Shown piece by piece: positions 1,131-14,974 of a stretch of 14,974 nt of DNA. Position numbers and translations under genes: made by a program. Positions within the stretch are counted from its first letter, which is position 1; every line of letters starts with the position of its first letter. Source of the stretch: a virus. The notes below the pieces were generated by a model that saw only the letters and a list, made by a program, of their open reading frames with translations, did not search any database and had not been told where the DNA came from. The stretch lies in UHGV virus genome UHGV-1728491, one strand, 5' to 3'.

Positions 1131-1324
1131 GTTAAATCTCCAGATAGTCGCAGCACCCGTTGCGCCGCATATCCGGTCATTCTATTACCTAAAAACCATA
1201 TATGGATAGAAAGCCCATAAATACGAACAGATATTACCTTTCAGGTGATTTGCAAAACGTGCTGGATAGCAAACAAATTATTTGCTACTGTATAAATATA
1301 CAGTTATTACATGGAGAAGATAAG
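1131..1324. promoter_or_regulatory. AT-rich divergent intergenic region, presumably holding promoters for the tailspike gene (minus) and the small plus-strand gene
   Basis: 194 bp non-coding gap between two divergently oriented start codons. Contains TGTATAAAT (1289-1297, extended -10-like) about 28 nt upstream of the plus-strand ATG, inverted repeat AGCAAA-N7-TTTGCT (1268-1286), and palindrome TTTGCAAA (1248-1255). No convincing -35 found; calls are by eye. Confidence 0.3.
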
Positions 1325-1582
1325 ATGCAGCAGTATCACTATCCACTGGAAGACGGATTTACCGAAAGGATTCACACGCCGGGAGGCGTCAGGTCACTGG
1401 TGGAGGGATCGCACTTGATGAAATTACTCCGGGATCTCGATAAGGATGGATTTAATGTCGATGGCCCACTTGCCGAACTGACTGCATTGATTAACTACGT
1501 CACCAGCTCACAGATGTCTATGCAGGATCTGCAAACACATCTCGACTATTGTGCCGAACAATTACGAAAACAAACCCGGTAA
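1325..1582 (+). CDS. Hypothetical small soluble protein (85 aa), orphan gene divergent from the late operon
   Basis: ATG at 1325 is preceded by SD GGAGAAG (1313-1319). Stop TAA at 1580-1582 is followed immediately by the 1590-1605 hairpin. The track's longer 126-aa version (from 1202) extends into the AT-rich promoter-like region with no SD, so I prefer the internal start. Product MQQYHYPLEDGFTERIHTPGG...; no family recognised. Confidence 0.6.
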   Translation: MQQYHYPLEDGFTERIHTPGGVRSLVEGSHLMKLLRDLDKDGFNVDGPLAELTALINYVTSSQMSMQDLQTHLDYCAEQLRKQTR

Positions 1583-1605
1583 ATTTAAAGGCCGCGAAAG
1601 CGGCC
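1581..1605 (-). terminator. Rho-independent terminator ending the minus-strand late operon; also the 3' hairpin for the convergent plus-strand gene
   Basis: Perfect stem GGCCGC (1590-1595) / GCGGCC (1600-1605) with a GAAA loop (UUUC on the minus transcript). On the minus-strand RNA the hairpin is followed by UUUAAAUUU (complement of 1581-1589). On the plus strand the downstream sequence is not U-rich. Confidence 0.7.
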
Positions 1606-1625
1606 TGTGACATGTCACGCTCACG

Positions 1626-1766
1626 TTATGACAAGCCTATGTACCCTGCTACACCAGATAATATCAAAATAACTGCAACAGCAAATTCGCCATCGTCAAT
1701 GATACATTTACGGTTCATAACGCCAAGTGCAACAAGCGCAAACACAACAAGAATAAAAGCAATCAT
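1626..1766 (-). CDS. Small hydrophobic protein, 46 aa, two predicted transmembrane segments; function unknown
   Basis: Hand-translated (below the 60-aa track cutoff): MIAFILVVFALVALGVMNRKCIIDDGEFAVAVILILSGVAGYIGLS, stop TAA at 1626-1628. SD AAGGA is 6 nt before the ATG (rc of 1764-1766) and overlaps the stop of the upstream 824-aa gene. Two hydrophobic stretches flank a charged loop (NRKCIIDDGE). Confidence 0.55.
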   Translation of the reverse strand: MIAFILVVFALVALGVMNRKCIIDDGEFAVAVILILSGVAGYIGLS

Positions 1767-1775
1767 TTCTCATCC

Positions 1776-4250
1776 TTATTGCGGAGTGACATCCTGTGGT
1801 CGCCACCAGTATGTCTGGTTAAACTCTTTCTTCGAACGTTGCTCCATTTTACGCAAATAACCTGGTGAAAAATACTCCTGCATCTGGTTAAAGATCATGT
1901 GATCGAGAGACGCCTTTAAGTACCAGAGATTCGCACCTGGCATCAGACCTTTCCCCAGCTTAACCAGATCACCACCAGTCTGCTCATTCTTCCCTTCCAC
2001 AGCATTTAACGGTATGCCCTGAGCAATCTTCACTACGTCATCAACCAGACCAGCTACCGGGCCAAGCATCGACGCCAGCGCGCCGCTTCCGTACCTAGTG
2101 TGATCTGACAATAAAAAGTCACCGTAAAGGCCAAGACCACCACCTTTCAGTAGAGCACCAAGCCAAAATTTAGCAGTATCTTCTCCTGTCATCTCGCGAG
2201 GATTACGACCAGACGCAAGGTCGTTAAGTTGCTGCGACAAAGCGCCAAGAATGGTCGTACTGGCAATAAACGTCGCAATATATGCCGCACGCCCACCAGC
2301 AGACGGCATACCCATAGCGCGTGACCAGTGACGCATAACCACCGAGATAGGGAACGATTTAAACAGGAAAACACTTCTCGTTAATTCACCTTTCCATGTT
2401 CCACGCTGAATACCAGAACCGGTTATCAGTTGCTCACGTGCTCCCGGTGTAATAACAGCCATATCAACTTCTTCAGTTACGGCACCGAGCAGTTTACGCA
2501 TTGCCTCAAATTTCACGCGTTCAGGCTCACCAAGATGTTTAACTGCTGAATCAGGGATACGCATAATGCTTTCCGGTGTCAGCATCGTATTATTACCGTT
2601 CCCCCAGTCCTCCTGTTGCGCCAGCTTCCATACACTCCAGTCTGTGTCAGTAATCCCTTTGCTTTTCAGGATACGAAAATCAGAGTCATCGAGGCTACGA
2701 AGGTCTGGCGTCCGTGACACTACTTCTCCCAGGCTTCCCATCATGGTTACGCCATAGGCGCGCTTGTGCGCATCTGACCATGCTGTAAGCCCACTGGCAC
2801 GCATTACGGCCGTTGCCGCCCAACGAGACACTGACGGCCCCATATTATCCATCGCCCAGCGGTTAACGCTGCCAAGTAGAGATTCCATCGCCAGACCAGC
2901 GCGGCGCGCCCGCACAAGTTCTGTACGGTTCGTTGGGTCCATAGCTTCAAGCTGGTTGCGGAATAACTGGTTCATTGGAAGGTTGGTAACCTTCGCCGAC
3001 AGATACATGGTTCCAAGATCAGAGAACGATGACAGCAACGCGGATCCGAGTCTGCTGGCAACCAGCCAGTTGCGGATATTGTCAGACCATCGCGCGATGT
3101 GCGGATTCGCTACAGGCTGTGTCTTTCCGGAAATAAAGTTGTACAGATTCTCTGTGTTGTTCGCCAGCCGCTCGACTTTACCGGTTTTACTCGGGTTAGC
3201 TGTTGCCGTTTCTGCCTTCACCTGATCAAGAAGAGAGCGGAAAACATGATCGGGGTTTGGGCCATATGTTTCCACCAGTGCAATATCTTTACTGATACCT
3301 TCCAGGTGACCGACCATGATTTCCCATAGAGAGCGATCGCCATAAAGTTGCTGATATTGCAGATAGGAATCTGCATCTTTGAAATGTATCTGTCGTGATG
3401 CATTACCACGGTTAGCACGTGCGCCGGAAATTCGCATTCCGGTATCAGTAAGCTTATTCAGCCCACCAGTAGCGATCGTGTTATAAGCCTCTCCAAGAAA
3501 TGCAGACAACTCAGCATCGTTCATCAGTTGTCCATCGGCTCGGGTATAATATTTGCGATCCAACTTACCTATAACATCGCTAACCCACTTATCCTTTGAT
3601 ACCGCCCCAACCTTTTCCATAGAATGATGTTGAGGGATCCCCCAGTTTTCGAGATAGCCAATGTCCCCACCAGCATCATTAAACCGGCGGCGCAGTAGCT
3701 CTGTCACTTCTCTCCACGCCTTAGCACCTTTTCTTGCTTTAGCATTGCCAGTATTTTGCCCCCGCATTTCATATACCAGGTCACGTACGCCCGCTTCATC
3801 TTCAAACAGACCAAAAAAGCGAGGATCAACTGCTTCGAATGCCTCCTGCAATTGACTCAATGCATAATCACGGGTGGCTTTTGTTCTGGATTCAACAGAG
3901 AGGAAATTCGATTTACCGTCTGCATTAAAAGCAATAGTACGGTTAAGAGCACCGAGTTTCCCATCAGCCCCTTGATAGCTATTGATAAATTTATCCAATC
4001 TCTGACGTGCGGCTATAGTGAGGGCCACACGACGTTTATTTAATGCCGCTTCTCGCTGTAATTCTTCAGATGCCAATTGTGCTGCTCGATATAGCCGCTC
4101 TGATTCGGAAAGTTGTCGCCACGACATCGGGTCATCACGAGCAATGGAGCGCATATTTCGATAAATGCGGTCTTCAATGTTCTGTATTTCTCGCGCCGTT
4201 AACGTGCGCTGCGCCGCCTGCTGGACCGCTTGTATACATTCCTGTCTCAT
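1776..4250 (-). CDS. Large internal virion / ejection protein (824 aa); C-terminal region resembles the C-terminal part of T7 gp16-type internal virion protein D
   Basis: Long ORF with own ATG (rc of 4248-4250) 5 nt after the stop of the preceding gene; a GAGG 9 nt upstream overlaps the end of the upstream gene. Last gene of the tail/ejection cassette. Gly/Ala-rich hydrophobic C-terminal third (…GGRAAYIATFIASTTILGALSQ…GGGLGLYGDFLL…) resembles what I recall of the T7 gp16 C-terminus. Unverified. Confidence 0.7.
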   Translation of the reverse strand: MRQECIQAVQQAAQRTLTAREIQNIEDRIYRNMRSIARDDPMSWRQLSESERLYRAAQLASEELQREAALNKRRVALTIAARQRLDKFINSYQGADGKLGALNRTIAFNADGKSNFLSVESRTKATRDYALSQLQEAFEAVDPRFFGLFEDEAGVRDLVYEMRGQNTGNAKARKGAKAWREVTELLRRRFNDAGGDIGYLENWGIPQHHSMEKVGAVSKDKWVSDVIGKLDRKYYTRADGQLMNDAELSAFLGEAYNTIATGGLNKLTDTGMRISGARANRGNASRQIHFKDADSYLQYQQLYGDRSLWEIMVGHLEGISKDIALVETYGPNPDHVFRSLLDQVKAETATANPSKTGKVERLANNTENLYNFISGKTQPVANPHIARWSDNIRNWLVASRLGSALLSSFSDLGTMYLSAKVTNLPMNQLFRNQLEAMDPTNRTELVRARRAGLAMESLLGSVNRWAMDNMGPSVSRWAATAVMRASGLTAWSDAHKRAYGVTMMGSLGEVVSRTPDLRSLDDSDFRILKSKGITDTDWSVWKLAQQEDWGNGNNTMLTPESIMRIPDSAVKHLGEPERVKFEAMRKLLGAVTEEVDMAVITPGAREQLITGSGIQRGTWKGELTRSVFLFKSFPISVVMRHWSRAMGMPSAGGRAAYIATFIASTTILGALSQQLNDLASGRNPREMTGEDTAKFWLGALLKGGGLGLYGDFLLSDHTRYGSGALASMLGPVAGLVDDVVKIAQGIPLNAVEGKNEQTGGDLVKLGKGLMPGANLWYLKASLDHMIFNQMQEYFSPGYLRKMEQRSKKEFNQTYWWRPQDVTPQ

Positions 4251-4255
4251 TTAAT

Positions 4256-6058
4256 TTAACCTCTCAAGAAACACGCCACAGCGACATCAAACAGGCTGGA
4301 ATCCTGTATTGCCTGCTCACTTTCCCTGTTCGCTTCATCCAGTACTTCACGCGCACTGCGCGATTGTGGATTACCATCATCATCCAGCACGGTGATTATC
4401 ATGTCAGGTGATTCAAGCAGCGAGTCTTCAGCTATGCGCAGATCAATATCTCCTGCCTGATCTGACATCATTTTTTGTTCTGCCTGTTGCAATATTTTAT
4501 CAGGCTCAAAAGGAGCTACTTCGTCTGGCGTCCTGACCTCTGCTGTTTTATAGAATGAAACAGCCTGAGCATTAAGTTCACTTTCTGCCTGCTGTCTCCG
4601 AGCCAGTTCTGCTCGAGCTTCAAAAAACTGACCGCCAGGCTCGTGCGGTGCCAACGCGTTACGGGAAAATTCCAGGCGTTCTTGTGCCTGCCGGATTCGT
4701 TGATCAATATCGCGAAGTCTGGCCTGTTTATCTGATCGAGCACGAGACAAAGCTTTACCGCTACCGGTTGGCTCTTCTGCAAGAATTTGTGCACGCTGTT
4801 CAGTGAGATTTTCAATAATTCGTTGGCTATTAGCGATTTCAGACTGGTAAACCTGTCTATCTCCACGCGGCAAAAGCTGCGCGGCCTGTTCTTCAAGCAA
4901 CCGATTTTCTATAGCGCGCGCCGTTACTCCATCATCTACAGATGACAGAGCCTCATTAACTTCCTGAGACAGCAGACTCTTGCGCCCAGGAATTTCACTG
5001 AAAGATGCAGACTCAACAATGCTCGCAACGTCTACAGGTCTCCCCTGGCTAACATCAGACATGGCTTTTCGCAGAGCCTGAATGTGCGAATTACGCGAAA
5101 GCACGTTGATCGGAACGCCGGGAGCAATATCAATTTCAGCATGATGAGCGGCATTCGCCGCCAGTGCAGCATCGATATCAACTGGTGAAAAATTTGGTGC
5201 GCTTGTAGGCTCGCCGCGAGAGTTAATAAATCTGCCGACACCACCAAACGCCACCCCAAGAACAGCATCAATAGCAATTGCCTGTCGATCCAACACATCA
5301 TACTGGTTAGCCATTTCGCTATAGCCACCATCACGAAGCGTTTTTGCAGTAAGCCCACGCTGTGCCATACCGAACGCAATATTTGTACCTGCGGCATAGG
5401 CAATATCTGGCGTTGCACGTACTGCTGTTGCTGCGGCGCGTCGCACTGAACTTTCCCCCGTCCGCGCAAGCTGAGCCGCCACACCTTCCGCCAGCGCACC
5501 GCCAGCACGTAACCCGAGGCTCATTGGGATCAGTGTTCCGGCACCAGCAGTAATACCATGCACTAATCCCGCTTCCTGCGCCGTCCTGAAATCAACACCC
5601 TGTGCTGTCAGCCGTTCAAACTCAGAAAAACCCTGTAGAGAAGTTACTGCCGCAGCACCTCCGACCGGACCACCGAGCGTTGTACCGACAACAGCCTGCC
5701 CGCCCATATCGAACAACCCATAAAGGACCTGCCCGGCGGTTCCGGTTGTCGCGGCATCAGGCGTCAGCCGCTTAACCTGCTGCTCTGCTAGTTTTCTCTG
5801 CTCAGCAATGTATGAAACTGAAGTGTCATTGAGCGAGGTGTTTTCGTTAACAAACTGAGCAATCGGGGATACGATTTTATCCATCCCTGCCCATAGCAAC
5901 TGATCTGGCTTTGCCACCAGCCCGGAGTACAAACCAGACAATGCCGCTCCTACAGCATTGTCGAAAAAACCAACATCGCTGTTAAAGCCAGCTGGATTTG
6001 ATGCTGCTTCGTCAAGCTGCTGATTCTGGTTTACTGGATTAAGGCCAAAGTAACTCAT
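4256..6058 (-). CDS. Internal virion / ejection protein (600 aa): Gly/Ala-rich hydrophobic N-terminal half, coiled-coil and acidic C-terminal half
   Basis: Long ORF in the ejection-protein position. ATG (rc of 6056-6058) has GGAG 9 nt upstream and overlaps the 3' end of the preceding gene by 20 nt. Composition is typical of membrane-inserting ejection proteins. No family-level match recognised. Confidence 0.65.
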   Translation of the reverse strand: MSYFGLNPVNQNQQLDEAASNPAGFNSDVGFFDNAVGAALSGLYSGLVAKPDQLLWAGMDKIVSPIAQFVNENTSLNDTSVSYIAEQRKLAEQQVKRLTPDAATTGTAGQVLYGLFDMGGQAVVGTTLGGPVGGAAAVTSLQGFSEFERLTAQGVDFRTAQEAGLVHGITAGAGTLIPMSLGLRAGGALAEGVAAQLARTGESSVRRAAATAVRATPDIAYAAGTNIAFGMAQRGLTAKTLRDGGYSEMANQYDVLDRQAIAIDAVLGVAFGGVGRFINSRGEPTSAPNFSPVDIDAALAANAAHHAEIDIAPGVPINVLSRNSHIQALRKAMSDVSQGRPVDVASIVESASFSEIPGRKSLLSQEVNEALSSVDDGVTARAIENRLLEEQAAQLLPRGDRQVYQSEIANSQRIIENLTEQRAQILAEEPTGSGKALSRARSDKQARLRDIDQRIRQAQERLEFSRNALAPHEPGGQFFEARAELARRQQAESELNAQAVSFYKTAEVRTPDEVAPFEPDKILQQAEQKMMSDQAGDIDLRIAEDSLLESPDMIITVLDDDGNPQSRSAREVLDEANRESEQAIQDSSLFDVAVACFLRG

Positions 6059-8567
6059 TCGGAATATCTCCGGAGAATCTCTGACGCTTCTGTGTCAGAT
6101 TAAGAACAACGGGAGAACCATCATCTTTCAGCAGATAACCAGTACCAAGTTTCACCAGGTACTGACTATCGCCGTAACTTTGCAAACCATACTGACCAGG
6201 CGGTGTTTTTATCCCGGAGCCGACAACTTGTTCATTCCAAGCCTGATTAACCTGCTTATCGAATTGCTCCGCAGACATTCCCCACGGCAAAAGGACATTC
6301 CCCATTCCGTTATAGTCATGCACGCCACCTGTAGCTACGTTAACAGCCTGTTTCCAGACATCATTGTCAATTTCGCCTGATACCACGCCTTTTTTCGCCA
6401 TCACACCAGCGTAATAATCCTTTGCGATCTCGTATGCCATTGATGCCCCCTGAGCGTCACCAGCAAATGCATCCTTCACCATGTCAGAAAACTCAAGGCG
6501 AAGATCAGCATCTTTAGGCATCGGAATACCTTTCGCATCATCAGTACCTTTACGAGCCGCCGCGCCAGCAAGAATTGTCTGCGCAGCGGTTTCAGGAGAC
6601 ACGGAAACATCCGGATTAAACCAGTTTTTTTCTGCCAAAATACCACCTGGCTTATCCATCAGTATCCCGGCAACGGCAGCAGATGGAGCGTTGGCACTGA
6701 TCTGCTGTAGTGCTGACATATACACCTGCCCACCACCAGTGCTCTGCCTGATGGTATCGAGATATGCTGCCTGTTGGGAAACTGGAGCATCACGAAAGAA
6801 AACACCGATCTGATTGGCCTCATCTTTGGAAAAGAACGTCAGTGGAGTGCCATATGACTTAGCAAGGTCACTGACCTGAGCGGCACGCAAGGCAACGCTC
6901 TGTCCAAAGTTATCCTTATTGCTCATGTCGATAGGCTTTGCCTGTCCGGCGGCAAGAGAGAACTGCACAGGATCCGATTGCCGCTGCTTTATCACCTGAT
7001 TTGCAGCCGAAACAACGTTGTCATAAAGAGCTGCGCGTGCCGCATACCCCTCCCCTGTCTCACCAGTATCCGGGCGTAATTGCTCAACATATGCTGTAAT
7101 GCTGCTTGTCGGCATGTTGCGGAAAGAGCCTATATACTGTCCGGCGATTTGCGTATTTCTGAACTCGGTATATCGCAGGTTTCCTTCTCTGACTCCATAA
7201 GCTGCAATAAAATCAGCCTCACCAGGTGGGTTAGGAAATTCAACGCCACGCATATACGCAGATGTCGCATCGCGAACTTGGCTGTCAATCATCGTTTTAT
7301 ATTCAGCCTGCTGCTGCCGACGCAGTTGATCCGCCTGTCGCATAAAACTTGCCTGCGCCTCAGGAGATGCCGCATCGAATGCTGCATTACCGGTATAGCG
7401 TTTGGTGTTGGTTGGAATTGTTGATAAACCAAGTGCTGCACTGACACCAGCAGTTAACTGCTGATCACTGTATGGCTGGCTACCGTTCTCATGATGGATA
7501 ATGGCTGCACAAAGCGCCTTCAGGGTATCAGGATTAGATGCATCGAGAGGCTCATCAGCAGAAACGCCAAGTTGTTCGCACACTGCTTTGATATACGACA
7601 TAGTGTCATTTTTATCAGTAGGCGGTGCCCAGCGATTAATTATCTCGCTGACGGTATCGATACCCTGCCGCTGATACGACATCAGGTTACGCCCTAATGC
7701 ACGAATCCCGTGCTCAGGTGTTTCGAATTTAGCAAATCGACCATCATCACCGGTCTGGCCTACCCACGGATTAGTTTTGCTGTATTCGAGATTTCCTGGG
7801 TTATTGTTGCGTATGCCACGGGCACGCTCGGAAGAGTCATTATCTGCTACAGCACGGCGAGCTCCAGCAGCAGTATCACTTAACTCGCCATTACTTTGGA
7901 TGAATGCGGTCGCATTGTTTGCCGACCACTGGGACAATGCGGCATCAGCAACCTTCTCTTTAAACTCGATTTTCTTGGCCTGTATTTGCTCGTCGCTCCA
8001 GCCATGCGCAACGCCGTAATCCTCAATTTGCTGGAAAGTTTGCTTATTAGCCAATACGTATGCGGCGTTGTCGCCATACAATGCTGCGGCATTTTTACCA
8101 TTGTTCAGCAGCGTCGCCTGAAACTGGCCTTCTTCGTAGGAATTTATTTGCCCTATCTCGTGCCGCCCGGCCTGCGTAGTGAACTGAATGCGCTGCTGCT
8201 GCGCCTGCTGCATGAAAGCATTACGAGCCTGTTCATCCGGCAGCGACATAGCCAGTTGCTCGACCTGGGCATCAAACTGCTGCGTATACTCCTGACCTTT
8301 TCCAATAGCATTTTTCCCTTTCAGGTTAAGCAATCCTGTTTCAGGATTATTCAGCAGATCACTGCTTATCTGACTGAGGTTAAGAGATGCCTCCTGAGCC
8401 AGAGCGATATTGGCACGCTGTTTTGCCTGCCCCAAAACATCAATTGCCTCTGTCCCTGCCCGAACAAAAGCATCACTAATACCTAGCTGAGAAAACGTCT
8501 GCAAGCCTGCTGACTGAACTCCACGACTCTCAACCTGACGTCCGGATACTGTTGGTACGACTGGCAT
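6039..8567 (-). CDS. Large internal virion / ejection protein (842 aa from the preferred start), gp15/gp16-class; contains a conserved hydrophilic NNNPGN block of possible enzymatic function
   Basis: The track gives 867 aa from 8642, but the ATG at rc 8565-8567 has a strong SD GGAGGA (rc of 8573-8578) and forms a TAATG stop/start overlap with the gp14-like gene, so I place the start at 8567. Follows the gp14-like gene as in T7-type cassettes. Conserved-looking block RGIRNNNPGNLEYSKTNPWVG…IINRWAPPTDKNDT at nt ~7443-7820. Confidence 0.65.
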   Translation of the reverse strand: MPVVPTVSGRQVESRGVQSAGLQTFSQLGISDAFVRAGTEAIDVLGQAKQRANIALAQEASLNLSQISSDLLNNPETGLLNLKGKNAIGKGQEYTQQFDAQVEQLAMSLPDEQARNAFMQQAQQQRIQFTTQAGRHEIGQINSYEEGQFQATLLNNGKNAAALYGDNAAYVLANKQTFQQIEDYGVAHGWSDEQIQAKKIEFKEKVADAALSQWSANNATAFIQSNGELSDTAAGARRAVADNDSSERARGIRNNNPGNLEYSKTNPWVGQTGDDGRFAKFETPEHGIRALGRNLMSYQRQGIDTVSEIINRWAPPTDKNDTMSYIKAVCEQLGVSADEPLDASNPDTLKALCAAIIHHENGSQPYSDQQLTAGVSAALGLSTIPTNTKRYTGNAAFDAASPEAQASFMRQADQLRRQQQAEYKTMIDSQVRDATSAYMRGVEFPNPPGEADFIAAYGVREGNLRYTEFRNTQIAGQYIGSFRNMPTSSITAYVEQLRPDTGETGEGYAARAALYDNVVSAANQVIKQRQSDPVQFSLAAGQAKPIDMSNKDNFGQSVALRAAQVSDLAKSYGTPLTFFSKDEANQIGVFFRDAPVSQQAAYLDTIRQSTGGGQVYMSALQQISANAPSAAVAGILMDKPGGILAEKNWFNPDVSVSPETAAQTILAGAAARKGTDDAKGIPMPKDADLRLEFSDMVKDAFAGDAQGASMAYEIAKDYYAGVMAKKGVVSGEIDNDVWKQAVNVATGGVHDYNGMGNVLLPWGMSAEQFDKQVNQAWNEQVVGSGIKTPPGQYGLQSYGDSQYLVKLGTGYLLKDDGSPVVLNLTQKRQRFSGDIPNELLWP

Positions 8568-9112
8568 TATAATCCTCCGGGTAATCTGGTTCCTGCTGCC
8601 GCCCCGATTGGCGCAGGGGTGCTTTGAGTAAACGGACTCCACGTCCCACCAAACATCTGGTACGCACCGTATGCCTTCAGAGGCGCAGTGAGCAATGTTG
8701 TTGCTGCTCCCACATTCCCCTGTTTACGGGCTGAACTGGCTTCTGCTTTATAGTTGGCAGCCTGAACCTGATAACCGTAAGCCTCGCGTTGCGCGTTATT
8801 CACCGTCGTTAGCGAATCAAGAGCGCCAAACTGAGCAGTGTCACCAAATATATCCAGCGCGTTACCTGTAGATAAATCAGCGCCGGTCGCCCCCATTGTC
8901 GCCGCCTGTGTACCAAGCCGCTGTCGGGTCTCTCTGCGCCGTTGCTCAGCTTCAGCGTTACCTCTGTTTATTGCATCATTTGCCTGAGCTGTGGCTATAT
9001 CTGCGTTCGCTTCTGCAACCTTCGAGGCATACTTTCCCTGTTGGTACTGGGTGTATGCCTGAATGCCACTCATGGCGAGCATTGCGCCACCAGCAATAAC
9101 CGGATCGCACAT
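8567..9112 (-). CDS. Internal virion protein B-like (T7 gp14-like), 181 aa
   Basis: ATG overlaps the upstream stop (TAATG at 9110-9114). N-terminus MCDPVIAGGAMLAMSGIQAY has a hydrophobic segment; Ala/Gln-rich middle; C-terminus …APIGAAAGTRLPGGL. Size, position after the gp13-like gene and N/C-terminal pattern match what I recall of T7 gp14 (196 aa). Memory-based. Confidence 0.6.
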   Translation of the reverse strand: MCDPVIAGGAMLAMSGIQAYTQYQQGKYASKVAEANADIATAQANDAINRGNAEAEQRRRETRQRLGTQAATMGATGADLSTGNALDIFGDTAQFGALDSLTTVNNAQREAYGYQVQAANYKAEASSARKQGNVGAATTLLTAPLKAYGAYQMFGGTWSPFTQSTPAPIGAAAGTRLPGGL

Positions 9113-9576
9113 TATTTTCTCTCCATGTGAAATCTGTGGAAATTAAGACCAAGAGCACCATAAGGCGCGGCTTCTTCAAGCCTGAATCCAAGCCAGTGCA
9201 GCCATGCTTTGGCAACATGGTTTCGCTCGTCGACGTAGTTTTCCAGGCGCGGATAAACTGCCAGCATCTGCTGCAATACAGGGCGGCAGTGGCGCAGAAA
9301 TGTCTTCTGATATTTTTCAATACGGCTGGTTCCGACCAGCCAGGGCGTACCATTGCCACCGATCATTGACGCCGGAGATACACCAAACATGGTTACCAGT
9401 TCTCCGTTCGCGAACCCTGACCAAGCCATAGTCGCAGTGCGAAGACCAACACGCAGCGCATCTTCGGTAGTCATCAGCGATACCGCATACAGTTCGTCAA
9501 TATCAGCCTGACGAACATCCGGCAAAATCATCTGAAGATGCTCTTCGGTAGCGGGAATAATTTGAACATCAATCAT
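9112..9576 (-). CDS. Internal virion protein A-like (T7 gp13-like position), 154 aa
   Basis: ATG overlaps the stop of the gp12-like gene (ATGA at 9574-9578). Size and position between gp12-like and gp14-like genes match the gp13 slot. Call is positional only. Confidence 0.45.
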   Translation of the reverse strand: MIDVQIIPATEEHLQMILPDVRQADIDELYAVSLMTTEDALRVGLRTATMAWSGFANGELVTMFGVSPASMIGGNGTPWLVGTSRIEKYQKTFLRHCRPVLQQMLAVYPRLENYVDERNHVAKAWLHWLGFRLEEAAPYGALGLNFHRFHMERK

Positions 9577-12038
9577 CAGAATCCCCCAACAGTAAGGCGA
9601 GGAATAACGGCAAGAACAGACAGCGGCAACGGGTCAAGCTGAAGGATTCTTACACGTCCGTTTTTGCCCCAGTTACTGTCCAGTTTCACTTCTACTTTTC
9701 CGGTAGCGTCATCAACAGGATCATCGTAGAACTCGAATTCACGCTGTGGATATTCGTACCATTTACCGCCGGGCGTAGTCGCCCAGATGCCGCGGCTGGC
9801 ATTCACAACCAGAGTAACGGATGGGATCACCTGTTTTTTGTCCAGCAGCGTTTCCTGTCCGTTAATGTTGATATCCAGTGTTTCGAATTCAGCAGTTATT
9901 GGCAGGCCGATGTGCACTACAGCCCCCGGTGATTCCAGCGTGACGGCACCTCCGGAAACTACTTTCTGTGGTTCCACGTTCGCATCAGAGAGGATGTTTA
10001 CGGTCTGACCTTCAAGATGAGACAAGCCGCCAAATGCCCGGCGCGCCATCTGCCAGTTCGTGGTGGCCACATTCCTGAGGGATGGCGGGACGTTCCTGTT
10101 AGCACGAACCACTACAGCGGTGTTGCTGGTTACAGAAATAATGTCGCAACGTAATTCTTTTGCGCCAGTATCAGGATCAGTTCCGGTATAAGGGAACTGT
10201 AGTTGCGCACCGACATCACTACTGGTGAAGTACGCACCACCAGAAATACTGATTGTATATTCCGCGCGGTAATCCCATTCGCCAGAACCACCAGTGATGG
10301 TCATCGTTCTGTCAGACGTATTTCTTCCATCATAGCTAAGGCCAGAATCAACAAAGAAAGCATCTTCATCGCTGGTAAATAAACGGCTGGACAGTCGCTC
10401 GATGTATCTCACTTTTTGCCCGTTAACGGTTCGGTTAACGACGAAATACACCGCATCTTCATTGCCTTCGCTGATACTGCATGTGCTTTCATATTTTCCG
10501 GTACTGGATTGTGGTGCCCATGCAAAAACCTGCTGATCACGCAAATAGGTCATCACCAGTAATTTACCGTCATCACGAATGCAGAAGGCGCTGGAGTAAG
10601 GGACAATCGAGAAGCACCAGTCAACAATGCTGTGCTTCTGAAAAAGATGATTGGCAAGGATAGTCAGGTCGTTCCCCTGATAGCCGTCAACATCGAATGA
10701 ATAGGCCAGATCACGGACAACACTGCCTTTCTCCTGGACGAACAGAGCAATATTCGCCACGGCAATTGGTGGGACGTTGCTTGAGCCATTTGATCCCTGA
10801 GAGCTGAATGCAAATGATGATGGGGTTAACACTTTGTTCTGGTCGCCGGTGATGACGTACTCACCTCCGGAAGTCAGTGCCACCAGCGAACCGACATCAA
10901 TCAGGTGGCGGATCTCATTAACCTGACGCCCGGCATAGGTGTAGATAATTCTGTCGTCATCCTGCGTAGGATTGCTTTTGCCAAAATCCTTATAATCCCC
11001 AGTACGGCTGGCCCAGATAGTCTGAGGGAACGCAGTCGATGCGGCGAAGTAAAGACGTTGTTGATAATAAACAACAGTGCCAGGATAACCATTAACACTG
11101 TTCCAGGCATATTTAGCCCATTTATAGCTGGCATTATCCTCGCCAACTATCTGCGAAGGGATATAGGAAATCACCTCGGCAGTTGCAGTAGTTCCATTTG
11201 CAGCAGTGATACGGGCAATGCCAAAACCACTGTGCAGATATTCCCACTCAATGCCAGTGTCATCATCACCGGATCCGCCCCAGCCATCCCATGATGTGCC
11301 TTCTGTATGCGAAGGGCGCAAAGTGCCTGTTTTGCCTGCTGTAACGGCGCGATAGTAGTTACTGTCTGCACGGCGAATATCGCCAATCGACGTACTCTTA
11401 CTGGTTTCCCATACCGGTACTGAATCCACTGCTGGCTGTTCCAGATAGAACAATTTTCCTACCTGCTCCGCGCCAAAAATAGAGGCGCTTGCCGTTAACG
11501 TAATTGTCCCGGTGCTGGCGCTGGCATAAACCGTCACTGACTCGTCAATATTGATATCTTCAAATGGCCCGTTCTTCGTTACTACATCAACCAGTTGCCA
11601 GTTGTCATGCGCATAGCGGCGCAACTCTTTCGGCGGGTATGCCGGATGAACCAGCGTAAGCACGTCTGCGCTTTGCGTGAATTTAATTCGGAACAGATCG
11701 GCTTCAGTATATGGCGTGGCAATTTCATAAATAACATTGCTGCTGTTCAGCACCAACGCACCATCTTTGATAACGCGCATGTACTGGTGTCCGAACTCCA
11801 GAGCATAGGTCTGAACCGTCGAGAACTGGAACGGGATCAGGCGGCATTTCCGATTTGGGTATTTGGCGGCACCGACAAAACGCGTACCAGGTCGATTCTC
11901 AACGCCGCCATACTGCCGCACGATAAAGTTATCGCACTTGCGCAATGCCACCTGGTACTTCGCCATGTCGATACGACCGTACAACGACGGTCCAATCTCA
12001 CCACCGGCAAAGCTGGGCTGTATCCAACTGATAGCCAT
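9576..12038 (-). CDS. Tail tubular protein B / nozzle protein (T7 gp12-like), 820 aa
   Basis: Long ORF. ATG (rc of 12036-12038) overlaps the upstream stop (TGATG), with GAGG 8 nt upstream. Several segments (N-terminal MAISWIQPSFAGGEIGPS…; central …WASRTGDYKDFGKSNPTQDDDRIIYTYAG…SGGEYVITGDQNKVLTPSSFAFS…) parallel the T7 gp12 sequence as I recall it. Follows a ~200-aa gp11-like gene. Confidence 0.7.
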   Translation of the reverse strand: MAISWIQPSFAGGEIGPSLYGRIDMAKYQVALRKCDNFIVRQYGGVENRPGTRFVGAAKYPNRKCRLIPFQFSTVQTYALEFGHQYMRVIKDGALVLNSSNVIYEIATPYTEADLFRIKFTQSADVLTLVHPAYPPKELRRYAHDNWQLVDVVTKNGPFEDINIDESVTVYASASTGTITLTASASIFGAEQVGKLFYLEQPAVDSVPVWETSKSTSIGDIRRADSNYYRAVTAGKTGTLRPSHTEGTSWDGWGGSGDDDTGIEWEYLHSGFGIARITAANGTTATAEVISYIPSQIVGEDNASYKWAKYAWNSVNGYPGTVVYYQQRLYFAASTAFPQTIWASRTGDYKDFGKSNPTQDDDRIIYTYAGRQVNEIRHLIDVGSLVALTSGGEYVITGDQNKVLTPSSFAFSSQGSNGSSNVPPIAVANIALFVQEKGSVVRDLAYSFDVDGYQGNDLTILANHLFQKHSIVDWCFSIVPYSSAFCIRDDGKLLVMTYLRDQQVFAWAPQSSTGKYESTCSISEGNEDAVYFVVNRTVNGQKVRYIERLSSRLFTSDEDAFFVDSGLSYDGRNTSDRTMTITGGSGEWDYRAEYTISISGGAYFTSSDVGAQLQFPYTGTDPDTGAKELRCDIISVTSNTAVVVRANRNVPPSLRNVATTNWQMARRAFGGLSHLEGQTVNILSDANVEPQKVVSGGAVTLESPGAVVHIGLPITAEFETLDININGQETLLDKKQVIPSVTLVVNASRGIWATTPGGKWYEYPQREFEFYDDPVDDATGKVEVKLDSNWGKNGRVRILQLDPLPLSVLAVIPRLTVGGF

Positions 12039-12643
12039 CAGGACAACCTCGCAATGGTAAACTCGTCAACCGGTGGCTGTGGTTCCTGTGATTCATTCTG
12101 GCTATGCGAGCCAGCACTAAGAATCACGCGATTGTACATATTGAGGGCAAACGTACCGAGGTCTGCATTCCCAGTCAGCGCCATGTTAATAGCTGCCGCA
12201 AGACGCCAGGCCAACGCCTCCATAAAAATGGCATCAAACATGTTCACATCTGTAACGCGAGAGACATACTTGAGCCATGCCTGAGGCTGGTCTGTGTAGA
12301 TCAACTTTCCTGTTCCGTTGGTGTCTGCACCAACTTCGTACTGAACGCGCATTGCTGCTGTTGGATTGCGTACACCAGGAAGCATAATTTCAGTAATGCG
12401 CAGACAATCGGACGGGTACTGGTATGCGTATTCCCAGTCTGGCGGCGGATTGTTCGTATCTGCAAGCGTCACGCGTTTGGTAGCAAAGTTCCAGTCAAAA
12501 TCAGAAAGCACAGCATCACGGCAGGCCTCAAAGTGCAGCGAACATTCCCCCGCTTCCTTGCTGGCTTCCGTCAGGCTGTTAATGCTGCGGCTGTTGCCAA
12601 TATTGGACAGCGCACGATTACAGATCTCTACTACAGAGGCCAT
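12038..12643 (-). CDS. Tail tubular protein A / adaptor (T7 gp11-like), 201 aa from the preferred ATG
   Basis: The track starts at a GTG (12646); the adjacent ATG (rc of 12641-12643) has SD GGAGGTG 5 nt upstream and overlaps the upstream TGA stop (TGATG). About 200 aa immediately upstream of the gp12-like gene, as in T7 (gp11 196 aa). N-terminal pattern (…VVEICNRALSNIGNSRSINSLTE…) loosely matches recalled gp11. Confidence 0.6.
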   Translation of the reverse strand: MASVVEICNRALSNIGNSRSINSLTEASKEAGECSLHFEACRDAVLSDFDWNFATKRVTLADTNNPPPDWEYAYQYPSDCLRITEIMLPGVRNPTAAMRVQYEVGADTNGTGKLIYTDQPQAWLKYVSRVTDVNMFDAIFMEALAWRLAAAINMALTGNADLGTFALNMYNRVILSAGSHSQNESQEPQPPVDEFTIARLS

Positions 12644-12966
12644 CACTCACCTCCGTTACCGTACAGAGTTTCAGCCGCTGATTTTTCTACATCCCCGGAA
12701 ACAGGAGCGATCGCCATATCAGTGATCTGCAGATCGGCGCTGCGATTAACGCCATCGTCAGTTTCTCTGGCAGACAGGCCTCGAATAACAGCCTTTGCAG
12801 TTATCATCACTTCTGTTCCGACGCCCTGAGGTTGCGCCTTCAACTTATTCAATGTGTCGTTATTAAGAGTGATGCACAGCCCCCACGGGTATTCATCGCG
12901 AGTTCTGGTTTCTCCGCTCTCATCCTGGTAGCTGTCAGTGCCGGTTTTGAGGTTTACGAGTTCCAT
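12643..12966 (-). CDS. Hypothetical virion-associated protein (107 aa from the preferred ATG); C-terminus carries the SAAETLYG motif shared with the scaffold-like ORF
   Basis: ATG at rc 12964-12966 has SD GCAGGAG 5 nt upstream. The GTG start used by the track (12972) has no usable spacing. First gene of the translationally coupled chain leading into the gp11-like gene. Confidence 0.55.
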   Translation of the reverse strand: MELVNLKTGTDSYQDESGETRTRDEYPWGLCITLNNDTLNKLKAQPQGVGTEVMITAKAVIRGLSARETDDGVNRSADLQITDMAIAPVSGDVEKSAAETLYGNGGE

Positions 12967-12978
12967 ATACACTCCTGC

Positions 12979-13000
12979 AATAAAGGGGCCGAAGCCCCTT
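12979..13000 (-). terminator. Intra-operon stem-loop with UUCG tetraloop followed by a U-rich tract; candidate partial terminator or attenuator
   Basis: Minus-strand RNA: AAGGGGC-UUCG-GCCCCUU (complement of 13000-12983), then UAUU, then the SD of the next gene. Lies in the 50-nt gap between the 111-aa and 107-aa genes. Confidence 0.45.
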
Positions 13001-13016
13001 GTCTGATCCGCGAGGC

Positions 13017-13352
13017 TTACACGCCCAGTTCTTTACGCTTATCTGCGATCTTCTCGCGGAGCGTTTCGGCTTTGGCGTTATGGTGTGGCTTCTCGTTAAA
13101 GAGCAATTCGTACTCTTCACGGAGCTTATCCAGTTCACCATCATCTGACACATCGTTGATGATTTTGGTGCTGGTTGCTGCCATTGACACCTTTCCTGCA
13201 ACTTTTGCTTTTGCCTGTCTGGCTGCATCGTTAACAGGTTCCAGTGCGCTACCAGGCTCACCTTCGTATTCGATTTCTGCCCCCTCCGGCCACAGAGTGT
13301 TATGGATATGAGAGAGGCGCAGAACGCGGTATCTTGGTTTCTCACCTGACAT
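13017..13352 (-). CDS. Hypothetical small acidic virion/assembly protein (111 aa from ATG; 114 aa if the GTG at 13361 is used)
   Basis: ORF between the 145-aa gene and the hairpin. ATG at rc 13350-13352 is preceded by AAGGTG. The alternative GTG start (13359-13361) lies 1 nt after the upstream stop. C-terminal half is charged and probably helical (…DDGELDKLREEYELLFNEKPHHNAKAETLREKIADKRKELGV). Confidence 0.5.
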   Translation of the reverse strand: MSGEKPRYRVLRLSHIHNTLWPEGAEIEYEGEPGSALEPVNDAARQAKAKVAGKVSMAATSTKIINDVSDDGELDKLREEYELLFNEKPHHNAKAETLREKIADKRKELGV

Positions 13353-13362
13353 CGATATCACC

Positions 13363-13800
13363 TTAACCAGTTACTTTTGAGCGGATCGGATACGGCGTAT
13401 TGGCATCAACATCAAGACTGATACCAGCAGTGAATTCGCCAGCCGTTAGTGGGCCAGTTGCGACGGAGTAGTTAACACGCAGATATCGCTGAACACCGGC
13501 AGGCACCTTTGCAGAAACAACTCGTTTACCTGCTGTCAGGGCGGTCTTTGCCAGTGCGCCACTATCATAAATAGTGGTCCATGAGCTGTTATTCTCACTC
13601 GTCTGCAACTGGATGTTTACAGTTGCATCACCGCTTGCCGCGGCGGCTGTGTTAACCAGCGCCCAAAACTCAAGCGGGTAACCCACGCCGATATCACGAC
13701 GTTTTCCGTCAATTGGACCGAGATCGATTACGTCAGTAGAAGCCGCGGTATTCGTAACCGCCTGAGCTTCGGAGAACATCAACAGTTTGTCGGTGATCAT
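13363..13800 (-). CDS. Hypothetical beta-rich protein (145 aa), candidate capsid decoration or minor head protein
   Basis: ATG at rc 13798-13800 with SD GGAG 9 nt upstream. Thr/Ser/Ala/Val/Gly-rich composition with no hydrophobic helices (Ig-like feel). Immediately downstream of the putative capsid gene. Function inferred from position only. Confidence 0.45.
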   Translation of the reverse strand: MITDKLLMFSEAQAVTNTAASTDVIDLGPIDGKRRDIGVGYPLEFWALVNTAAAASGDATVNIQLQTSENNSSWTTIYDSGALAKTALTAGKRVVSAKVPAGVQRYLRVNYSVATGPLTAGEFTAGISLDVDANTPYPIRSKVTG

Positions 13801-13815
13801 CTTCTTTCTCCATTA

Positions 13816-13835
13816 GTGGGTCTGTTACGACCCAC
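13816..13835 (-). promoter_or_regulatory. Stem-loop (7-bp perfect stem, 6-nt loop) directly after the capsid gene, no U-tract; candidate RNA processing or stability element
   Basis: GTGGGTC (13829-13835 complement) / GACCCAC (13816-13822 complement) on the minus transcript, with loop GUAACA. Located 16 nt after the capsid stop and followed by UAAUGGAGAAAGAAG-AUG (SD and start of the 145-aa gene). Confidence 0.35.
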
Positions 13836-13851
13836 AGGTTAATAACAGGCG

Positions 13852-14838
13852 TTACACCACGCGGGCTTCTGTTTCCAGAAGCGCATCAGTCTCACGGATT
13901 GGTACACCACGGAATGAAGTCCACCACTCGCCTTCTGTCTCTTTTACGCTGATCGCCAGAGATGTTTTCTCCAGAGATTGCAGATCAAGAGCCTGGCCTA
14001 CAGTGCGGTTCATGTAGAACACCGGGCGGCCCATGCCACGGTTTGGAATGCGATGCAGTGCTTTAACCATCAACTTCGCAATATTTGCTGCAGAGGAAGG
14101 TTCTGAAAGATTGCTGACATCGATGTTTGCAATGCGAACAACATAACGCCAGTCACGCAGAGCAAGCCCGTTGTCCCATTTGTAATGGGTACGGTAGCCT
14201 TCGTACTTGCCGCCATTCGCATCTTCCAGTGTCACCTGGCCTTTATCTTCCATCTGGATGCCAGCCTTCTGCCCTTTCGGGAAGATGCCATGCACGGTGT
14301 TTTCGCCCCACACCACTAACCAGATTGAGGTGTTATCTGTACCCGTGCCACCAGCATCAATGATGTTCTGAGCATTACCCGCAGACAGGCTGGAATAGCG
14401 GGAGGACAGTCCCATAAACTGCTGAGGGTTAACGCTGGAATCACCATAAAACAGTGTCTGCGCCATCTGCTGATTCATCGCTTCAATAAATGCGCGGTCT
14501 TCAGACAGGCGGAACTCGGCGGTATTGCCGTTCAGATCAGCCAGTGACTTATCGACTTCAGCATAGGTTTCCAGCATGCCAACGGAATCGGTTACCTGCA
14601 CTGTGGTTGATTTGCTTGGCTGTACGCCATAGTTCAGCAAACGCCAGGTAGCTGAAGGTAAACCAGAACGAATGGTGGTTCGGTGTCCGGTAGGAAGGTT
14701 CCCTTCGACAAAAGGCATATCCTGAAGGATCGGGTTAGTTTGACCGAGAAGCTCGATAATCTTATCGACTTTCCCGTTTGGATCGACGCGCTTACCCCAG
14801 TCAGCCAGCGTTAGCGCAGTTAAGCCTTTAACAGCCAT
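13852..14838 (-). CDS. Putative major capsid protein (328 aa from the second ATG; 330 aa if the ATG at 14844 is used)
   Basis: Complete ORF of typical HK97-fold capsid size, directly downstream of a scaffold-like ORF and upstream of the tail genes. SD GAGAGG sits 8 nt before the ATG at rc 14836-14838 but only 2 nt before the ATG at rc 14842-14844, so the second ATG is preferred. No diagnostic motif recognised; the call is from size and synteny. Confidence 0.55.
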   Translation of the reverse strand: MAVKGLTALTLADWGKRVDPNGKVDKIIELLGQTNPILQDMPFVEGNLPTGHRTTIRSGLPSATWRLLNYGVQPSKSTTVQVTDSVGMLETYAEVDKSLADLNGNTAEFRLSEDRAFIEAMNQQMAQTLFYGDSSVNPQQFMGLSSRYSSLSAGNAQNIIDAGGTGTDNTSIWLVVWGENTVHGIFPKGQKAGIQMEDKGQVTLEDANGGKYEGYRTHYKWDNGLALRDWRYVVRIANIDVSNLSEPSSAANIAKLMVKALHRIPNRGMGRPVFYMNRTVGQALDLQSLEKTSLAISVKETEGEWWTSFRGVPIRETDALLETEARVV

Positions 14839-14852
14839 TGTCATTTCCTCTC

Positions 14853-14974
14853 TTATTTGCCATAGAGCACTTCGGCCGCACTACGCTGGCCTTCATTACC
14901 ACCGGTGACCATGCCATCTTCAGACATCGCCTTTCCGATTTTCACGAACGTTTTGACCAGATCAGGGTGATTAC
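14853..14974 (-). CDS. 3' end (last 40 codons) of the gene upstream of the capsid gene; scaffold-like by position
   Basis: Only one minus-strand frame is open across 14856-14974 (the other two hit stops at once). It ends …KIGKAMSEDGMVTGGNEGQRSAAEVLYGK with TAA at 14853-14855, 8 nt before the capsid SD. The scaffold assignment is positional (portal-scaffold-capsid order in T7-like modules). Confidence 0.45.
   Translation of the reverse strand, partial: NHPDLVKTFVKIGKAMSEDGMVTGGNEGQRSAAEVLYGK

Follow-up and report, generated by a model that had tools for sequence, protein, structure and literature searches.

What do three small genes do between the capsid gene and the tail-adaptor gene of a phage, and do they belong there? 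This question is raised by a stretch of 14,974 nucleotides from the UHGV virus genome UHGV-1728491 (the window, meaning here the whole stretch that was analysed), in which open reading frames (ORFs) of 145, 111 and 107 amino acids (aa) occupy positions 12643 to 13800. In T7, no genes lie between gene 10 and gene 11, and an earlier note on this DNA, which took a T7-type module as its reference, had proposed that the three genes were inserted from a different lineage, as decoration or head-completion proteins, giving a mosaic head-tail junction. The sizes and coordinates that it gave are correct, as is the hairpin that it placed between the second and third genes (12983-13000, conserved in relatives), and the three ORFs, like all genes of the window, are read on the minus strand. 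By sequence comparison, the phage is a temperate podovirus of the ε15 group, a Uetakevirus of the φV10/TL-2011b type, whose head module is represented in this region by its downstream half, and the three-gene set corresponds to the standard head-accessory genes of this described genus, which are already known. Taken jointly, the gene identities, their conserved order and the cement role of the first small protein are held with high confidence. The features concerned are, in window order:

14853..14974, minus strand: 3' end only of a gp6-like gene, cut by the window end (translation; orthologues annotated 'protease/peptidase')
13852..14844, minus strand: major capsid protein (MCP) gene of the ε15 gp7 / BPP-1 Bbp17 type (PF20911, NCBIfam and PDB matches)
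13816..13835, minus strand: stem-loop between the capsid and cement genes (fold energy, positional conservation)
13363..13800, minus strand: 145-aa protein of the Bbp16 family, by homology the cement protein, counterpart of ε15 gp8 and φV10 p11 (ATG start; PF21190, 3J4U_H)
13017..13352, minus strand: 111-aa gp9-like protein (from ATG; the upstream GTG at 13361 would give 114 aa; phrog_590)
12977..13000, minus strand: terminator-like hairpin (stem-loop 12983-13000) with a T-rich tail (sequence, conservation)
12643..12966, minus strand: 107-aa protein of the ε15 gp10 family (from ATG; the GTG at 12972 would give 109 aa; PF21628)
12038..12643, minus strand: 201-aa gp11-like tail adaptor, counterpart of ε15 gp11 (phrog_394, 8CK1_E)
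9576..12038, minus strand: 820-aa gp12-like nozzle protein, counterpart of ε15 gp12 (phrog_376; its start overlaps the gp11-like stop)

The head module and its relatives

Positions 12000-14974 of the window (2975 bases) share 99.1% DNA identity with TL-2011b and 98.6% with φV10, and are 84% identical to Enterobacter phage Tyrion. The taxonomy lines of φV10, ε15 and Tyrion name the genus Uetakevirus, in which the window falls both by nucleotide identity and by the order of its structural genes (MCP, gp8, gp9, gp10, gp11, gp12, internal virion proteins), as read from annotated tables and tblastn mapping. The annotated order in φV10, Tyrion, ε15 and TL-2011b (portal, gp5, gp6 ('protease'), MCP, gp8, gp9, terminator, gp10, gp11, gp12, internal virion proteins) is that of the window, and the run from MCP to gp12, terminator included, is identical in φV10, TL-2011b and ε15. 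The finding is in this respect an ordinary one, namely a standard head-gene layout on sequence about 99% identical to published phages. The three small ORFs are real genes and not chance ORFs, because they have Pfam and PHROG matches (PHROGs 427, 590 and 825, at 1e-58 to 1e-64) and 25 prophages of other species retain an ORF for each of them.

The flanking genes define the type of the virion. The MCP matches PF20911 at 2.1e-149, the NCBIfam model MCP_gp7_epsi_15, and the solved chains 3J4U_A (9.5e-129), 8CJZ_Y (1.2e-87) and 3J40_A (2e-85). The 201-aa protein matches phrog_394 ('tail protein', 6.6e-87), phrog_9239 ('tail tubular protein') and PDB chain 8CK1_E ('Connector Protein', 7.6e-27); a phmmer search with it gave no direct match to T7 gp11, and its link to T7 runs through the ε15 RefSeq record of the gp11 counterpart, which notes an HHpred match to T7 tail tubular protein A, and through PMC4819975. 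The 820-aa protein (phrog_376) is 88% identical to ε15 gp12, itself homologous to T7 gp12 (PMC4819975). The tail gene gp12 and, probably, gp11 are remote T7 homologues, and the head is of the ε15/BPP-1 type. No literature describing PDB entries 8CJZ and 8CK1, which hold the homologous capsid and connector, was found.

How far does this gene set extend beyond the genus? When species-level genomes were scanned with an alignment of gp10, 25 loci emerged, from Enterobacterales, Burkholderiales, Stenotrophomonas, Clostridia, Planctomycetota and other metagenome-assembled genomes (MAGs), and single-protein scans of viral contigs returned near-identical loci only. Two arrangements are found. In type A (the window, ε15, a Clostridia MAG, Stenotrophomonas) the order is portal, gp5, gp6, MCP, cement, gp9/bbp15, gp10, gp11, gp12, and in type B (BPP-1, Limnohabitans, Castellaniella, Sterolibacterium) it is portal, gp10, gp5, gp6, MCP, cement, bbp15, gp11, gp12. 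The gp10 gene therefore belongs to the core but can occupy either of two positions, each of them among genes for low-copy proteins. Phage ΦXacm4-11 likewise has two small genes between its cement gene (gp26) and its adaptor gene (gp29).

The cement protein

The 145-aa product matches the Bbp16 family (PF21190) at 4.7e-47, over profile positions 1-115 of 115 and with 159.5 bits against a curated cut-off of 27.1, and its gene lies directly downstream of an MCP gene of the BPP/ε15 type, so that family membership is indicated both by sequence and by position. Among solved structures it matches the 'cementing protein' of BPP-1 (3J4U_H, 1.5e-25, residues 1-141, 43% identity) and a 'Capsid Decoration Protein' (8CJZ_B, 1.6e-22), and its ε15 counterpart, gp8, has 130 aa and is 35-36% identical to it. 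The cement gene directly follows MCP in the diverse loci where both were identified, with the exception of L086, in which the locus comparison detected no cement gene.

In BPP-1, Bbp16 is an essential jellyroll protein present 1:1 with MCP, its side chains modelled at 3.5 Å; the asymmetric unit was modelled as 7 MCP and 7 Bbp16, and these two are the most abundant virion proteins (PMC3863775). The 145-aa protein is homologous to Bbp16 over its full length and is encoded directly after an MCP of the same family; it is, by analogy with these solved relatives, the capsid cement protein, the homology being direct and the function carried over. As with Bbp16, it would form jellyroll dimers across capsomer interfaces on the shell exterior, in equal number with MCP, and the place of its gene, right after the MCP gene and upstream of a terminator, would fit high expression. 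BPP-1 differs from the window phage in its host and tail fibres, in the position of its gp10 homologue bbp20 (upstream, between the portal gene and gp5/gp6), and in the small gene that follows cement (bbp15, 68 aa), which has only the N-terminal module of gp9.

Exchange of the capsid genes

Although gene order is the same in the window and in ε15, protein identity between φV10-type phages and ε15 is far from uniform along the module:

TerL 94%, portal 81%, gp5 65%, gp6 73%
MCP 43%, gp8 35-36%, gp9 40%, gp10 42%
gp11 85%, gp12 88%, gp13 63%, gp14 78%

The capsid genes thus stand at about 35-43% identity, whereas the flanking genes gp6, gp11, gp12, portal and TerL stand at 73-94%. The borders are sharp in the DNA alignment with ε15, in which an identity of about 75% gives way to about 50% over roughly the final 20 codons of gp6, and about 80% is reached again at the first codon of gp11. 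On these alignments, the gp6 tail, MCP, gp8, gp9 and gp10 make up one swapped cassette that ends exactly at gp11. For MCP, gp8 and gp10 the window is closer to BPP-1 (62%, 43% and 49% identity, respectively) than to ε15. That its MCP is far closer to BPP-1, a member of the genus Rauchvirus (62%, 9.5e-129), than to the type phage of its own genus, ε15 (43%, 2e-85), implies that the capsid cassette crosses genus boundaries.

What remains, then, of a foreign insertion into a T7-type module? The recombination boundary at the gp10|gp11 junction with respect to ε15 speaks for it, as does the arrangement of T7. Against it, the same genes in the same order are found in every Uetakevirus examined, remote relatives within the ε15/BPP-1 group (Burkholderiales through to MAGs of Clostridia and Planctomycetota) carry the same set, and the swapped unit includes the capsid gene itself, so that the small genes travel with the capsid gene and are not inserted beside it. 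The insertion has next to no chance of being right. Rather than inserted genes of a different lineage, the three are core genes of Uetakevirus (ε15, φV10, TL-2011b, Tyrion) in this exact order, a synteny result that the earlier note had itself named as the one that would count against its proposal, and their set is shared across the wider ε15/BPP-1 structural group, for whose head T7 was the wrong comparator. The idea of a mosaic junction survives in part: there is a boundary exactly where it was placed, and the unit exchanged consists of the capsid gene, its three followers and the gp6 tail. The suggestion of decoration or head-completion proteins likewise survives for one gene, which encodes capsid decoration (cement); no evidence for head completion was found, and co-variation ties the third gene to the capsid gene and not to that of the adaptor.

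The gp10 family and the capsid staple

The 107-aa protein belongs by sequence to the Gp10-like family (PF21628, 1.1e-51, 173.6 bits against a cut-off of 27), matches ε15 gp10 as deposited in PDB (3J40_N, 2.1e-21, 43% identity), and has as its BPP-1 homologue bbp20 (49% identity). NCBI and UniRef label its homologues 'capsid staple protein'. Is it, as PDB 3J40, PF21628 and NCBI would have it, the external staple of the capsid, with the 145-aa protein in another role? Beyond the sequence match and the naming, the identification of gp10 in mature ε15 virions by the original proteomics (reported in PMC9207676) favours this assignment. It is opposed by a re-analysis of the ε15 map by Hryc and Baker, in which an AlphaFold model of the 111-aa gp10 misfitted the staple density (map-model correlation coefficient, CC, 0.10), whereas a 130-aa protein fitted it with a CC of 0.61, and of 0.81 after refinement (PMC9207676). 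The supplementary sequence of that 130-aa protein starts MLLDQQALFS… and is ε15 gp8, which, like the 145-aa protein, is homologous to the BPP-1 cement protein solved at 3.5 Å.

Structure prediction for the 107-aa protein points the same way. Its AlphaFold2 (AF2) model, with a mean predicted confidence (pLDDT) of 78, has two short strands, a helix, a long β-hairpin of 17+17 residues and a disordered tail; it is not a jellyroll, 3J40_N is absent from its 50 best Foldseek matches, and a BFVD search returned uncharacterised members of its own family only, with no fold neighbour outside it. Profile searches of gp9 and gp10 against PDB sequences found nothing beyond 3J40_N. The protein therefore shares a sequence family with ε15 gp10 while its predicted fold differs from the deposited one, and neither the fold nor the role of inter-capsomer staple deposited in 3J40 was recovered for it. 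In addition, BPP-1 carries bbp20, yet its shell is modelled with MCP and Bbp16 in 7 copies each, and a gene placed after a terminator, or beside the portal gene, is ill-suited to the production of some 415 copies. The staple assignment is accordingly judged highly improbable. The gp10-family protein is most likely not the external staple (held tentatively, at a little under an even chance), and the fold and staple function of 3J40 were probably assigned to the wrong gene product. This reassignment between gp8 and gp10 has been in print since 2022 (PMC9207676). Databases nevertheless still spread 'capsid staple protein' over the gp10 family, and 'hypothetical protein' over the true cement protein (gp8/Bbp16).

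Two proteins in which gp10 appears fused to ClpP (P0141 and P0237) were set aside as assembly artefacts: they are reciprocal chimeras of a gp10-like protein and a bacterial ClpP, joined at QITDMAI, from ENA metagenome assemblies, and are most likely mis-joins at a shared k-mer.

Matching ends of gp6 and gp10

Where, if not on the outside of the shell, might gp10 act? A clue comes from gp6, which is labelled 'protease/peptidase' in RefSeq/NCBI (L002:8854-9549; window 14853-14974). The φV10 gp6 matches no peptidase model in Pfam or NCBIfam and no solved structure in PDB, the ε15 and BPP-1 orthologues have no NCBIfam match, and none of the 120 best gp6 relatives has a precomputed Pfam domain, despite their 'peptidase' names; neither a recognisable peptidase domain nor catalytic residues, by which a prohead protease would be known, were found in gp6. 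The N-terminal half of gp6 is acidic and of low complexity, its gene lies directly upstream of the capsid gene, and the MCP of BPP-1 is not cleaved (PMC3863775). These features suggest that gp6 is probably a scaffolding protein, and its 'protease' name, a label without domain support, looks like one propagated from an old similarity note.

The last ten or so residues of gp6 and gp10 are alike within a phage and unlike between phage types:

window, φV10 and Tyrion: gp6 …GQRSAAEVLYGK (…QRSAAEVLYGK), gp10 …EKSAAETLYGNGGE, with the motif …SAAExLYG (encoded in the window at 14856-14882 for gp6 and 12646-12681 for gp10)
ε15: gp6 …DLISAFYPKK, gp10 …ELKDAFYPDGEDD (also written …LKDAFYPDGEDD)
BPP-1: gp6 …DARRLYAASNMNP (also written …ARRLYAASNMNP), gp10 …AAQRLYGASSMSA (also written …AQRLYGASSMSA)
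locus L133: gp6 …ARRLYAASNMNP, gp10 …AQRMYANSGMNA
locus L134: gp6 …DPAKKLFPNMN, gp10 …DPAKAMYPSMLG
locus L140: gp6 …AEVLYPGQS, gp10 …FQVMYPGSG…

When defined strictly as [AST]xx[LMFIV][YF][GPADSR] within the last 14 residues, the motif is present in 20/26 gp6 and 21/29 gp10 proteins, compared with 0/28 portal, 0/26 gp5, 0/24 MCP, 1/23 cement, 0/15 gp9, 0/23 gp11 and 0/24 gp12 proteins, and with a background of 2.9% among all six-frame ORFs of the same loci. Tail similarity, in BLOSUM units and with the anchor residues excluded, averages 15.6 within a locus and 6.9 between loci (permutation p < 5e-5, in a test that ignores kinship). Two putative procapsid proteins thus share a co-varying C-terminal motif that tracks the capsid type.

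A model that would account for this is that the tails of gp6 and gp10 dock on one and the same site of MCP inside the procapsid, gp10 being a co-assembled interior protein, either an auxiliary scaffold or a cargo retained in the virion. Under this model, the tails would be the sole parts of gp6 and gp10 that need to match a given MCP, hence the gp6 tail would travel with the cassette and the gp6 body would not; retention of gp10 as cargo would also explain its detection in ε15 virions. Capsid-binding C-terminal ends are shared in several other systems, namely λ gpC/Nu3, herpesvirus UL26/UL26.5, the HK97 protease tail, the 80α scaffold versus SaPI1 CpmB, and the cargo-loading peptides of encapsulins. 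The likeness lies in two procapsid proteins with the same terminal peptide tracking the capsid type; the difference is that gp6 and gp10 come from separate, unrelated genes and not from nested reading frames, and that their binding to the capsid is putative.

Several points weigh against docking and against a scaffolding gp6. The permutation test does not correct for relatedness, many of the loci are enterobacterial with an LYG tail, and the co-variation comes down to about four or five independent tail types; L086 and L087 have a minimal Φ-Y motif only, and their own partner ranks poorly. The proposed docking is read from sequence patterns, a protein of 107 aa that is mostly β would be out of the ordinary as a scaffold, and the presence of gp10 in mature ε15 virions fits a retained cargo, not a scaffold that leaves the shell. 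Moreover, gp6 could be a divergent protease beyond the reach of profile methods. Docking of gp10 is for these reasons proposed tentatively, at just short of an even balance. A wider combination is possible and somewhat less probable still, in which the gp10 family would act inside the procapsid, brought there by a C-terminal peptide in imitation of the gp6 end, gp6 would be the scaffolding protein of the lineage, and the recombination unit would be the capsid protein with all that must fit it (the gp6 tail, cement, gp9 and gp10).

Could gp10 instead be a head-completion or portal-vertex factor that acts with the adaptor gp11? Its stop overlaps the gp11 start (TGATG), its gene shares with the tail genes a place behind the terminator, the gp10 gene of BPP-1-type genomes is a neighbour of the portal gene, and the long hairpin of the predicted model could serve in a ring or barrel. 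Set against this, gp10 varies in step with the capsid cassette (42% identity to ε15) rather than with portal (81%) or gp11 (85%), and its tail has its match in gp6, whose gene immediately precedes that of the capsid. In ΦXacm4-11, neither product of the two small genes between cement and adaptor genes was modelled in the capsid or in the portal-adaptor-nozzle maps, and PDB 8CK1, the homologous connector, has no chain that matches gp10 by sequence. A portal-vertex role is thus rather unlikely.

Prohead proteases commonly trim themselves and internal proteins, as do T4 gp21 and the HK97 protease, and gp6 is annotated as a protease; the shared tail might then be a cleavage or recognition site of a maturation protease, at which gp6 would cut both itself and gp10, and not a docking peptide. 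This is quite improbable, given the missing peptidase domain of gp6, the uncleaved MCP of BPP-1, and the pattern of exchange between φV10 and ε15, in which the gp6 bodies are 73% identical and only the tail switches with the cassette, placing the partner of the tail inside the cassette and not in the specificity of the gp6 body. Docking on MCP is therefore the interpretation retained here, at the strength given above. The matching tails and sharp cassette borders, which we have not found described in the open-access literature, suggest a route of procapsid recruitment in the ε15/BPP-1 lineage, and suggest which parts should be exchanged together in capsid engineering. BPP-1 has been proposed as a display platform.

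The gp9-like protein

For the 111-aa protein the match is phrog_590 (3.5e-61); Pfam, NCBIfam and PDB gave none. Its AF2 model is mostly helical and of low confidence (pLDDT 62), too poor for a fold search. The earlier note had called this protein acidic and helical and the 145-aa protein beta-rich: the helical prediction agrees, at its low confidence, the acidity is only mild (isoelectric point, pI, 5.8), the truly acidic protein being the 107-aa one (pI 4.4), and beta-rich holds roughly for a full-length homologue of a solved jellyroll protein.

The gp9 architecture consists of an N-terminal module of about 45 residues (…YRVLxxSxIxxxLxxxGxExEYDGxPGxxLEPLNDAA…), a variable linker and a conserved C-terminal pair of predicted helices. 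The module occurs in 284 protein clusters (at 50% identity), almost always at the extreme N-terminus (P0238-P0386, e.g., P0324), followed by unrelated, variable tails of low complexity or coiled coil, and one protein has three tandem copies of it. No Pfam family covers the module, and a Pfam scan of the long proteins that bear it gave no domains. Among close relatives, the linker holds from 0 to about 5 tandem copies of a unit of about 27 residues (…LEPLNDAA[KR]xAKAKAKHK…VVA), so that homologues range from 86 aa (no unit) to 192 aa (about 5 copies; P0001, P0033, P0036, P0045, P0101), and in the E. coli variant P0001 a 16-residue stretch is duplicated. Conservation is highest in the C-terminal 40 residues (…LDKLREEYELLFNEKPHHNAKAETLREKIADKRKELGV), which other proteins carry too.

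By the alignments above, gp9 is a member of the same co-inherited cassette. Our best guess, made with low confidence and held less firmly than the docking of gp10, is that it may be a capsid-assembly or capsid-associated accessory protein that is not icosahedrally ordered, with an N-terminal binding module on a flexible tether. Fusion of the cement protein to gp9 by a programmed frameshift, of the kind seen in T7 10A/10B, was considered and rejected: the gp9 frame contains a stop four codons before its first start, a slippery site is lacking, and ε15 has a different overlap.

Hairpins and transcription

The hairpin between the gp9-like and gp10-like genes (12983-13000, minus strand) reads AAGGGGC-TTCG-GCCCCTT followed by TATTG, with the AGGAG ribosome-binding site of the gp10-like gene directly beyond. 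Its 7-bp stem with a UUCG loop and a UAUUG/UUUAUU tail is conserved in nine lineages, including the Clostridia MAG, with differing stem sequences (3/7 stem pairs are changed on both sides), and the equivalent ε15 site is annotated as a rho-independent terminator. A G+C-rich stem-loop, a U-tract and a conserved position, the marks of such a terminator, are thus all present. Two results weigh on the other side: a simple consensus terminator scan did not flag the hairpin, and its fold energy is unexceptional in a 71-nt context (z = -0.47). On balance, it is probably a conserved intrinsic terminator of partial effect.

By attenuating transcription after gp9, the hairpin would let MCP, cement and gp9 be made in larger amounts than gp10 and the tail proteins, a role comparable to that of Tφ behind T7 gene 10. 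In both systems a terminator-like hairpin stands between highly expressed capsid genes and the genes for adaptor and nozzle (distantly related to T7 gp12 and, probably, gp11), but in the window two further genes, cement and gp9, come before it and gp10 comes after it, and the capsid protein has a BPP-type and not a T7-type topology. Downstream of it, gp10, gp11 and gp12 are linked by TGATG overlaps, from which translational coupling of the three may be inferred.

The second stem-loop (13816-13835, minus strand), between the MCP and cement genes, reads GTGGGTC-GTAACA-GACCCAC and has no U-tract (-18.2 kcal/mol, z = -2.35). It occurs at the same position with different stems in φV10-type relatives and in BPP-1, and is lacking in ε15; it may be an element for mRNA stabilisation or processing.

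Neighbouring genes

Further downstream in the window, the longest-ORF call for the gp15-like gene (6039-8642, 867 aa, GTG start) overlaps the gp14-like gene (8567-9112) by 76 bases. Because φV10 annotates an 837-aa product for this gene, the true start is probably a downstream codon. Beyond the gp17-like gene, window positions 1-1800 are less conserved (64-69% covered, at about 90% identity, in φV10-type phages), and the matching region of TL-2011b holds other accessory genes (an Arc-like repressor, an antirepressor and a YafO-family toxin).

A last observation concerns a small protein encoded just upstream of the portal gene, outside the window (φV10 p06, ε15 gp3 and BPP-1 bbp22; L002:11539-11745, L003:3037-3243 and L004:22762-23169): its C-terminal end, …LLTG.QG…GK[ST]LLGQ, is near-identical in all three phages, and the remainder diverges.

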